From the NCBI GenBank assembly GCA_964536745.1, contig CAZHYL010000003.1, positions 1,001 to 65,000 on the forward strand: a stretch of 64,000 nt of DNA. Reading direction: 5' to 3'. Positions 2 through 1,861 of this stretch are shown in pieces (positions within the stretch are counted from its first letter, which is position 1; the number at the start of each line of letters is the position of its first letter). The position numbers were made by a program, and so were the translations under genes. Under the pieces are notes generated by a model, which saw nothing but the letters and a program-made list of their open reading frames with translations, was not told where the DNA came from and did no database searches. The stretch comes from an uncultured Candidatus Saccharibacteria bacterium. Its GTDB lineage: Bacteria > Patescibacteriota > Doudnabacteria > UBA920.

Positions 2-1861
2 ACAGTAACATTTACTCCACCAGTTTCTAATGGCGGCGCTACAATCACTTCTTACACAGTTACCTCAAGTGGCGGCCAAACTGCTACTGGCGGTGCATCC
101 CCAATCACTATCACTGGTTTAACAAATGGCGTTGCTTATACATTCACAGTAACCGCGACAAACTCTGTAGGTACCGGAGCTGCGTCTAGTGCTTCTAACT
201 CTGTAACACCTGCCACAGTGCCAGATGCTCCAACAAACTTAGCTGGGTCGATAGGTGATACTCAAGTTAGTTTGACTTGGTCTGCACCAGCATTTAATGG
301 TGGTTCGGCTATCACTAGCTATACAGTAACTTCTAACATTGGTGGTCATTCTGCAACAGTGGCAGGGACTTCTGCAACAGTGACAGGCTTAACTAACGGC
401 GTCACATATACCTTCACGGTGACTGCTACTAATGCAGTCGGAACAGGTACGGCTTCTGGTACAAGTGGTTCACTTACTCCAGCAAGTGTTCCTGGTGTAC
501 CAATAAACCTTGCAGCTGTGATTGGTGATAGTAGTGTAGATTTATCATGGTCTGCTCCTGTAAGTAATGGTGGTTCGGCGATTACAGATTATGTAATAGA
601 GTACCAATTAACTACCGGTGGTACATGGTCCGTATTTTCTGATGGCGTGAATACATTAACAGCAGCAACTGTTACAGGGTTGTCTAATGATAATTCTTAT
701 GACTTTAGGGTTTATGCAAAAAATATTGTTGGTCAGGGATCGGCTTCTGCTCAAGTGAGTGCAACACCAGGGCCTCCTGCTCAGGTAATAATTCAGGGTT
801 TTAGCGATTTGACAGTAACCAGTATTGCTACCGACGTTCGTATTACAAATGAAGGTGATAATGAATATGAGTATCAGTATACTTGGTGTGTGACAGATTC
901 TCAGTTAAATTTGTGTGGAGGCGGTGATGATGTGTTTAGTGCTAGTGCTGCAAAGTTAATTCAACCTTTGGAGAACTTCGATACTTCGTTAAATTCTACA
1001 GTTGTAACACCAGGCAACTATTGGTTCCACTTAGATGTTCAATATGGTTCTGAGTCGTCCCAGTCATCTCAAACTTTCACTGCAACAGCTGAAGCTCCAT
1101 CTAGTGGTGGCGGAGGCGGCGGAGGCGGCGGAGGCGGCGGCGCTACTTCTAGCAAAGCTCACGTAGATGGAACGCTAATTCAAGATGGAGGTACTTTCTA
1201 CTTAATTCAAAATGGCCAAAGAATTGGGTTTAGAGACCCTGAGGAATATAAATCACACGGTTATACTTTTGATCAAGCCGTACCCGCTTCGAATGCAGAT
1301 AAAGCTTTGGCAGTAGGGAGTATTAGTAAAGCAATGGAAGGGACTTTGGTGATAGATGCAGCAGACGGAAGAACGGTGTATATGATAGGTTCTTACAATA
1401 CCAAACGAGGATTTACATCTAGCAGAGTATTTAAAGCTTTGGGCTATAGCTTTGACAATCTTCCAAAAATAAACTTGTCAGATTATCCTACTGGTACACC
1501 AATTTCTGATTCTACAAAACCTCATCCAGATGGCTCGCTTGTAATAGACGGTCAAACAATTTGGTGGATTCGTAATGGACAAAAAACTGGCTTTGAAAGC
1601 ATGGCAGTATTTAATACATACGGTTTCAGTTTGAGTAGGGTAGTGAAGGCTAATAAAGCAGACCTAGCATTACCTGAGGGACCTGTAGTGAAATTCCGTG
1701 ACGGTACTTTAGTCCTAGATCAGAATAAATATTATATTATTTCGAATGGCCAGAAATTGTTATTTAAGACAGTCGAACGATTGATTGCTCTGGGATACAA
1801 AGTTACAAACATTATCCCAGCCAGTTTGCCTGGGTATGAATCCGGTGGGTTCATCAAATAA
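2..1861 (+). CDS. Secreted/surface repeat protein, 5'-partial. Frame 2 is open from the window edge; the listed Met at 218 is internal. It has tandem fibronectin-III-like modules, a poly-Gly linker and four copies of a ~38-aa C-terminal repeat.
   Basis: Frame 2 has no stop from nt 2 and reads TVTFTPPVSNGGATITSYTV…, repeating the FN3-like 'LxWSAPxxNGGSAIT(D/S)Y…GLTNGVxYxFxVxAxN' module. The C-terminus carries 4 repeats of the type 'DGTLIQDGGTFYLIQNGQRIGFRDPEEYKSHGYTF'. A rho-independent terminator follows at 1864-1890. Confidence 0.7.
   Translation, partial: TVTFTPPVSNGGATITSYTVTSSGGQTATGGASPITITGLTNGVAYTFTVTATNSVGTGAASSASNSVTPATVPDAPTNLAGSIGDTQVSLTWSAPAFNGGSAITSYTVTSNIGGHSATVAGTSATVTGLTNGVTYTFTVTATNAVGTGTASGTSGSLTPASVPGVPINLAAVIGDSSVDLSWSAPVSNGGSAITDYVIEYQLTTGGTWSVFSDGVNTLTAATVTGLSNDNSYDFRVYAKNIVGQGSASAQVSATPGPPAQVIIQGFSDLTVTSIATDVRITNEGDNEYEYQYTWCVTDSQLNLCGGGDDVFSASAAKLIQPLENFDTSLNSTVVTPGNYWFHLDVQYGSESSQSSQTFTATAEAPSSGGGGGGGGGGGGATSSKAHVDGTLIQDGGTFYLIQNGQRIGFRDPEEYKSHGYTFDQAVPASNADKALAVGSISKAMEGTLVIDAADGRTVYMIGSYNTKRGFTSSRVFKALGYSFDNLPKINLSDYPTGTPISDSTKPHPDGSLVIDGQTIWWIRNGQKTGFESMAVFNTYGFSLSRVVKANKADLALPEGPVVKFRDGTLVLDQNKYYIISNGQKLLFKTVERLIALGYKVTNIIPASLPGYESGGFIK

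Follow-up and report, generated by a model that had tools for sequence, protein, structure and literature searches.

We analyzed a 64,000-nt stretch of DNA, referred to here as the window, from an uncultured Candidatus Saccharibacteria bacterium that GTDB places in the Doudnabacteria (positions 1,001 to 65,000 of contig CAZHYL010000003.1, assembly GCA_964536745.1). Three plus-strand genes in the window encode exported proteins, hereafter proteins A, B, and C, that carry arrays of the same tandem repeat. The arrays represent a real domain family of familiar design, with a repeat of about 60 amino acids (aa) and a predicted fold like that of the EccB repeats, which is abundant on the exported proteins of Patescibacteria. 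EccB is a mycobacterial protein and a core component of type VII (ESX) secretion (Pfam PF05108; PDB 3x3m/3x3n, 4kk7, 5cyu, 6sgy, and 7nps).

Protein A (positions 2-1861 of the window) is 5′-partial: its frame, that of nt 2, extends without a stop from the window's 5′ edge to position 1861, leaving 619 aa visible. These comprise at least three FN3 domains, a segment of about 110 aa without a Pfam match, a Gly12 linker (1106-1141) that separates the upstream domains from the array, and an array of four repeats (1166-1333, 1337-1510, 1529-1699, and 1700-1858). As in the other two proteins, the boundaries of the repeats were set with a hidden Markov model (HMM), for which repeat 1 has a domain score of 83.7 bits; repeat 4 runs up to the stop codon. 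An earlier reading of the window, made from its letters without database searches (the sequence-only reading), had begun this array at nt 1140, which is out of frame; repeat 1 begins at 1166, beyond the Gly12 linker, whose last position is 1141. The segment without a Pfam match, which lies between the last FN3 domain and the linker (aa ~255-365, window ~765-1097), holds a Cys pair (WCVTDSQLNLCGGG).

The second array closes a giant exported protein (3544-9467), which is 1974 aa long when intact and consists of an N-terminal hydrophobic segment, eight FN3 domains, a SASA/SGNH carbohydrate esterase domain, and a C-terminal array of three repeats. In the window, the gene is broken into open reading frames (ORFs) at 3544-7638 and 7635-9467, the second of which encodes its C-terminal part, protein B, with repeats at 8898-9077, 9078-9254, and 9273-9443. 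A G run that is one base shorter in the window (CCGGGGCA), at about 7618-7621, splits DLPGAIIIMTGFQ. The esterase domain (aa 1196-1415 of the intact protein) spans the frameshift and is disrupted in the window. Other assemblies carry the gene intact, as a 1974-aa protein (P0073, in the same 90% cluster, and P0070), and the shortened G run reflects either an error of the assembly at a homopolymer or a real frameshift. Repeat 2 of protein B contains a 10-residue insertion between strands 1 and 2 with Cys487 and Cys497 (window positions 9093 and 9123; C-SDRGEDRGT-C), a pair that is conserved in P0166 and P0207, two relatives, and that protein C lacks. The two cysteines probably form a disulfide that staples the loop, which would fit an extracytoplasmic location.

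Protein C (41138-41821) is a stand-alone array of 227 aa. Its signal peptide (aa 1-21, MKKYIFGFLAMTLLLPSTIHA, cleaved between IHA and A) runs straight into the first of three repeats (41213-41404, 41408-41563, and 41588-41755), and the protein ends in a tail of about 20 aa.

Ten hand-cut units from the three proteins were aligned with a mean column identity of 35%, giving the consensus xGTLIxDxGTxYxIxxGxKxGFxSxxVFxSxGYSFxNxVxANxxDxxLxxxxGxxI. An HMM of these ten units recovered four copies in protein A, three in protein B, and three in protein C, and found the repeat in none of the other ORFs among the 574 six-frame ORFs of the window. Because an HMM built from all units is a circular test, we also trained HMMs on single proteins. 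Each of these leave-one-protein-out models matched the other two proteins at E values from 3e-18 to 3e-30, and none matched any of 300 shuffled tails or any further ORF among the 574, even at E ≤ 100. The repeat common to the three proteins, which the sequence-only reading had proposed, is therefore real, far beyond chance.

Its dimensions differ from those first described, which were a unit of 38-40 aa in two to four copies. The copies are indeed in tandem, and there are three or four of them per protein. Periodicity persists on self-comparison, with maxima of the BLOSUM autocorrelation at lags of 57, 63, and 60. The period in the window proteins is 57-65 aa, and the spacing across the family has a median of 60 aa (interquartile range 58-64). 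The 34-residue motif recognized earlier corresponds to the N-terminal conserved core, H-P-x-G-T-L-[IV]...G-T-[IV]-Y-x-I...G-x-[KR]-x-G-F-x-S...F-x-S-x-G-[YF], which makes up the first two-thirds of each unit. The last third (..V.AN..D..L....G..I) is less conserved and, in the AlphaFold2 model presented below, belongs to the same folded domain.

No Pfam-A or NCBIfam model covers the arrays, whether whole proteins were scanned at E ≤ 1 or isolated arrays were scanned against Pfam-A at E ≤ 10. In particular, CW_binding_1/2, LysM, SH3b, SLH, PEGA, GW, PASTA, CW_7, PG_binding, and SPOR gave no Pfam match on the repeat region, and NCBIfam gave none either. The description of the repeat as unassigned, and as lying outside CW_binding, LysM, SH3b, SLH, and PEGA, was thus correct. 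The arrays share their general plan with SLH, CW_binding_1/2, LysM, SH3b, GW, PASTA, and CW_7, namely two to four tandem, non-catalytic, terminal repeats shuffled among exported enzymes and adhesins. However, the classical wall-anchoring modules of monoderm bacteria have another fold and belong to other sequence families, and they are absent from the Foldseek structural matches of the repeat.

AlphaFold2 modeled protein C with a pLDDT of 91.8 and a pTM of 0.83 from an alignment with 47 homologues; a single repeat (repeat 3 of protein C), modeled alone with 55 diverse units, reached a pLDDT of 96.2. The modeled unit is a compact alpha/beta domain with two helices, in the order strand-strand-strand-helix-(3-10 turn)-short strand-helix-strand. 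In a Foldseek search of the PDB with the three-repeat model, the top 11 matches were all EccB1, EccB3, or EccB5 (best E 9.5e-5, prob 0.96). EccB chains also led the matches of the single repeat (TMq 0.62-0.65, root-mean-square deviation 2.4-2.8 Å over 55-63 columns, prob 0.96-0.98), for which the E values are poor (~0.1) because the query has only 62 residues. Compared as a whole with EccB, the protein C model has a TM-score of only ~0.2, since the repeats are arranged differently.

These models bear directly on the suggestion that the repeat forms a β-propeller or β-solenoid. A lectin of this kind, with blades of about 40 aa, would account for the core motif DGTIY...G, which resembles blade hairpins, and a profile search of PDB sequences (A3 profile) returned only the designed propellers Cake and Pizza, at E 2e-6. 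We rejected these candidates, as their scores are sums of ~4-bit matches on identical blades, each with an individual E above 100. Moreover, the period is 60 aa and not 40, there are only three or four units, each unit contains two helices in the AlphaFold2 model (pLDDT 96), and natural propellers appear in Foldseek only at E > 0.4 with prob ≤ 0.06. The propeller or solenoid reading is already contradicted and, in our judgment, extremely improbable. An EccB-repeat-like fold, to the exclusion of propellers and solenoids, is well supported for a prediction. In searches of PDB sequences, the A1 profile returned a single chance match at E 1.3, and one relative (P0077), used alone, returned nothing.

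The EccB repeat domain consists of a four-stranded sheet and two helices over about 50-57 aa (PMC4769845), and a similarity of the periplasmic repeats R1-R4 of EccB to PlyCB, a phage subunit that binds the cell wall, has been pointed out. The window arrays resemble EccB in several respects: a unit of ~50-60 aa, a predicted alpha/beta fold of a sheet and two helices, three or four copies per protein, an extracytoplasmic location, and a faint in-register sequence signal. They differ in their arrangement. In EccB, a central core beta-sheet domain separates R1 and R4 from R2 and R3, whereas the window arrays are contiguous, and a repeat spacing of 57-65 aa leaves no room for such a core. EccB also has an N-terminal transmembrane anchor, in contrast to the cleavable signal peptide of protein C or the C-terminal position of the arrays in multidomain proteins, and it occurs in Actinobacteria, while the window arrays are found in Patescibacteria. 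Lastly, the window arrays have neither a significant sequence match to EccB nor a type VII secretion context, which would comprise genes such as eccC, eccD, mycP, and WXG100.

The sequence comparisons with EccB can be summarized as follows. PF05108 had no match on proteins A, B, or C or on relatives that are pure arrays, even at E ≤ 10, and it passed its whole-protein cut-off only on P0077, with 39 bits summed over 17 repeats and no single stretch passing. The EccB1 query sequence is identical to residues 23-432 of 3x3m_A in the PDB. With hhalign, the repeat profile matched EccB1 on R4 (P 0.025), 117 EccB1 orthologues (P 0.027), and an alignment of the EccB R1-R4 units over strands 1-3 (P 0.004); these matches are in register and not significant, and we regard them as only suggestive. 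The family HMM matched 91% of real EccB sequences, compared to 37% of shuffled and 32% of reversed ones, although all matches were below 10 bits and the orthologues are not mutually independent. Its matches gather on R1, R2, and R4. A tblastn search for a type VII secretion context, with EccB1 and P0220 (EccB1 and an FtsK/SpoIIIE-domain segment), gave no match at E ≤ 1 anywhere in the window, and the Pfam scan covered only part of the window ORFs. The window proteins are not members of the EccB family; remote homology between the two kinds of repeats is plausible.

PlyCB itself, the cell-wall-binding subunit of PlyC, the lysin of streptococcal phage C1 (PDB 4f87), forms an octameric ring of single domains, unlike the tandem arrays described here, and shares no sequence similarity with them. 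The phage family phrog_9616 matches two repeats of the protein A array (window 1142-1858) at E 1.2e-7. Foldseek against a viral library of BFVD models returned uncharacterized actinophage proteins at TMq 0.73-0.78, among them A0A345MGB2 of Streptomyces phage LukeCage and A0A1I9SA71 of Rhodococcus phage Weasels2, whose predicted fold resembles that of a single repeat; proteins annotated as lysins matched weakly. The phrog_9616 and actinophage proteins differ from the window arrays in being short (102-115 aa), with one or two units.

A profile search covered 1.84 billion cluster representatives, with clusters at 50% identity. At E ≤ 1e-3 it returned 3106 clusters, a number that falls to 1469 at E ≤ 1e-10 and to 417 at E ≤ 1e-30. 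We consider 1469 the safe count, since propellers that match weakly over several blades might be included among the hits near the cut-off. A homologue search with the A3 profile yielded only six short fragments, one of them from Minisyncoccia. Genome matches of the B/C-type array were found in metagenome-assembled genomes labeled Doudnabacteria, Patescibacteria group, or Saccharibacteria, together with two short contigs carrying other phylum labels, and there were often two or three array loci per genome. With 3106 clusters, and with recovered loci that are almost all from metagenome-assembled genomes of Patescibacteria, for the most part with the label Doudnabacteria or Saccharibacteria, the repeat family is widespread in this group and is not, as had been supposed, private to one lineage.

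The architecture of the family was assessed on 214 retrieved members. Three repeats are present in 128 of these proteins and four in 72, with arrays rarely reaching 13 repeats; the profile search reported up to 17 repeat stretches in one protein. The array is C-terminal in 131/214, N-terminal in 40/214, and makes up the whole protein in 31/214. Of the 201 members with an initial Met, 172 have an N-terminal hydrophobic segment, compared to 2 of 17 control ORFs from the window, in agreement with the view that the family resides on exported proteins. Gly/Ser linkers join the arrays to many unrelated extracellular domains, and the fusion partners include Big_7, fn3, TIG, CarboxypepD_reg, FG-GAP, NHL, Polysacc_deac_1, SpoIID, NAGPA, SASA/SGNH esterase, Peptidase_S8, Trypsin_2, CAP, and cupredoxin. 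The arrays are thus extracytoplasmic modules that occur in many fusions. We note that the top-scoring family member, P0077 (1423 aa), carries 17 repeats, which belong to a subtype of greater regularity (FRDGTLIKGSSATVYVIENGQKRGI...), and a C-terminal domain with the motif HEWGHWW that looks like a zinc metalloprotease.

Within the window, repeats resemble each other more by position than within one protein: identity is 45% for B1-C1, 47% for B2-C2, and 39% for B3-C3, compared to 21-36% between repeats of the same protein. The tail of protein B and protein C are colinear, with 44% aa identity over 188 aa. We conclude that the whole array of three or four repeats is the inherited unit, and the prevalence of these two array lengths in the family agrees with this. 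At the DNA level, no similarity beyond short chance matches was detected among the three arrays.

The position of protein C next to uvrA had been taken as a sign that the module is mobile within the genome. At least 24 contigs, which come from several samples, carry an identical protein C, and in 4/4 places shown it sits between uvrA and the same genes for a membrane protein, a helix-turn-helix (HTH) protein, thioredoxins, and DsbD. In other species, array genes lie in differing contexts, with uvrA nearby in 1/79 related loci. No mobile-element genes were seen flanking protein C. We therefore rejected the mobile-module interpretation: proteins B and C share 44% aa identity without DNA similarity, and adjacency to uvrA is found in only one of the 79 related loci yet is invariant for the identical protein C. 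We attribute the differing contexts of the arrays to old paralogy and genome rearrangement, and not to current mobility. Modular reuse over evolutionary time, that is, domain shuffling, is supported.

In the window, the array genes have as neighbors genes for a zinc-ribbon protein, tRNA-Glu, and an HTH protein, as well as uvrA, thioredoxin/DsbD genes, and ORFs that resemble thioredoxin reductase. In the interval from protein A to the giant protein, the minus strand carries a 99-aa Zn_ribbon_TFIIB protein with a Pro/Gln/His-rich tail (1908-2207) and a tRNA-Glu(UUC) gene (2563-2637); an ORF of 259 aa at 2693-3472, with one hydrophobic segment, has no Pfam match. Downstream of protein C, the minus strand at 41901-44801 encodes a membrane protein of 122 aa, an HTH protein of the Xre type (63 aa), a 350-aa TlpA-like thioredoxin with a Thioredoxin_10 domain, a DsbD_TM protein of 239 aa, and a thioredoxin of 183 aa. 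These genes form an extracytoplasmic thiol-disulfide cluster, which is present in all four places shown for the identical protein C.

Neighborhood clustering of the 79 related loci identified no conserved partner gene near the arrays. The commonest neighbor was a membrane protein with Wzy_C (O-antigen ligase-like) and TPR domains, which lies within 6 kb of an array gene in 17/79 loci (L056:9353-11662 and 16 others); genes for LOG, transaldolase, GlpX, and aldolase followed in 13-15/79, and none of these neighbors is in the window. The Wzy_C-TPR neighborhood probably represents lineage synteny rather than a functional link.

Based on this information, we lean towards interpreting the arrays, with modest confidence, as a non-catalytic module that targets proteins to the cell envelope by binding a wall polymer. 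The suggestion of surface anchoring or ligand binding in the sequence-only reading is thus still the best guess. The evidence for this role is the combination of export, a terminal, linker-separated module with many partners, partners that act on peptidoglycan or glycans, and a predicted fold like that of the EccB repeats, which have themselves been compared with a phage wall-binding protein. Export signals are present in the window as the signal peptide of protein C and the N-terminal hydrophobic segment of the giant protein. The partners that act on peptidoglycan or glycans are SpoIID, polysaccharide deacetylase, SGNH/SASA esterase, and NAGPA, and the partner set, including the Big_7/fn3/TIG stalks, is typical of wall-anchored proteins. 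From these features, we infer the ligand and hence the anchoring role. Under this hypothesis, an array protein would first be exported by Sec, and its array would then bind a cell-wall polymer, either peptidoglycan or an attached glycan. The bound array would keep enzymes, as well as FN3/Ig stalks resembling adhesins, on the surface of the cell, and protein C would act as a free-standing wall-binding protein.

Several points weigh against a wall-binding role. Peptidoglycan binding by the EccB repeats themselves is only a hypothesis, and sequence homology to EccB is not statistically established. PlyCB (4f87/4f88) was not among the top 50 Foldseek matches of the single repeat, and matches to endolysin binding domains were weak (LysIME-EF1, 6ist, TMq 0.38-0.40; viral lysins, prob < 0.45). 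No phage lysin with the repeat was found: the A array had no tblastn match in 50,697 phage records, and a scan of IMG/VR with the A2 profile returned no relative. The arrays are also not consistently basic, with isoelectric points of 8.9, 5.2, and 4.4 and a family median of 5.7, and so offer no electrostatic hint of teichoic-acid binding; on balance, we consider that the isoelectric points neither help nor hurt the proposed role.

The evidence from fold and export would serve equally well if the arrays bound a host bacterium, by its wall or its surface glycans, and not the producer's own wall. Patescibacteria are often episymbionts. The long FN3/Ig stalks, FG-GAP, and NHL domains among the partners are found in adhesins as well, and the nearest structural relatives of the repeat are from Actinobacteria (EccB) and actinophages (the TMq 0.73-0.78 proteins above). 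However, a C-terminal array behind stalks or enzymes, the arrangement of the 131 proteins counted above, is in the position expected for self-anchoring and not at a distal tip, although the 40 N-terminal arrays do not follow this pattern. In addition, where their systems are known, enzymes such as SpoIID and polysaccharide deacetylase have the wall of the producing cell as their target, and we know of no host for this organism. We therefore consider a role as a host adhesin unlikely.

A further possibility is that the arrays have no wall-polymer ligand and are protein-protein assembly modules, which would oligomerize or dock on an envelope protein as EccB does in ESX or as in the PlyCB ring. 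Among the best structural matches are the periplasmic assembly of ESX-5 (7nps and 7np7) and the EccB3 dimer (6sgy), the three-repeat model is a compact rigid body according to its pTM, and PlyCB is an octamer. On the other hand, the module is joined to dozens of unrelated partners, and the survey of neighboring genes gave no conserved candidate for a docking partner, its commonest hit being confined to 17/79 loci and missing from the window. A stand-alone array such as protein C would also carry nothing to deliver to a complex. An assembly function is thus, in our estimation, quite improbable.

A broader version of the wall-binding hypothesis would hold that the arrays are the main wall-anchoring system of the exported proteins of Patescibacteria and, at the same time, true remote homologues of the periplasmic EccB repeats; the arrays would then stand for an ancient module that binds peptidoglycan or glycans and was recruited by EccB. 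We regard this combined proposal as doubtful. If the wall-anchoring part were true, the array could serve as a tag for displaying or localizing proteins on the surface of uncultivated bacteria, and if the arrays were homologues of the EccB repeats, knowledge of their ligand would provide a first lead to the function of those repeats.

Patescibacteria account for a large share of bacterial diversity, are mostly uncultivated, and have surface proteins that are largely unannotated. The domain described here has no Pfam or NCBIfam model, yet it occurs in at least 1469 clusters (50% identity, E ≤ 1e-10) of mostly exported proteins. With a name for the domain and a connection to a solved fold, many giant proteins now listed as hypothetical could be annotated better. 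As tandem wall-targeting repeats are a familiar design, we consider the finding useful and not startling. If wall binding is true, the arrays would show how Patescibacteria hold enzymes and adhesins on their surface and would hint at the role of the EccB repeats.

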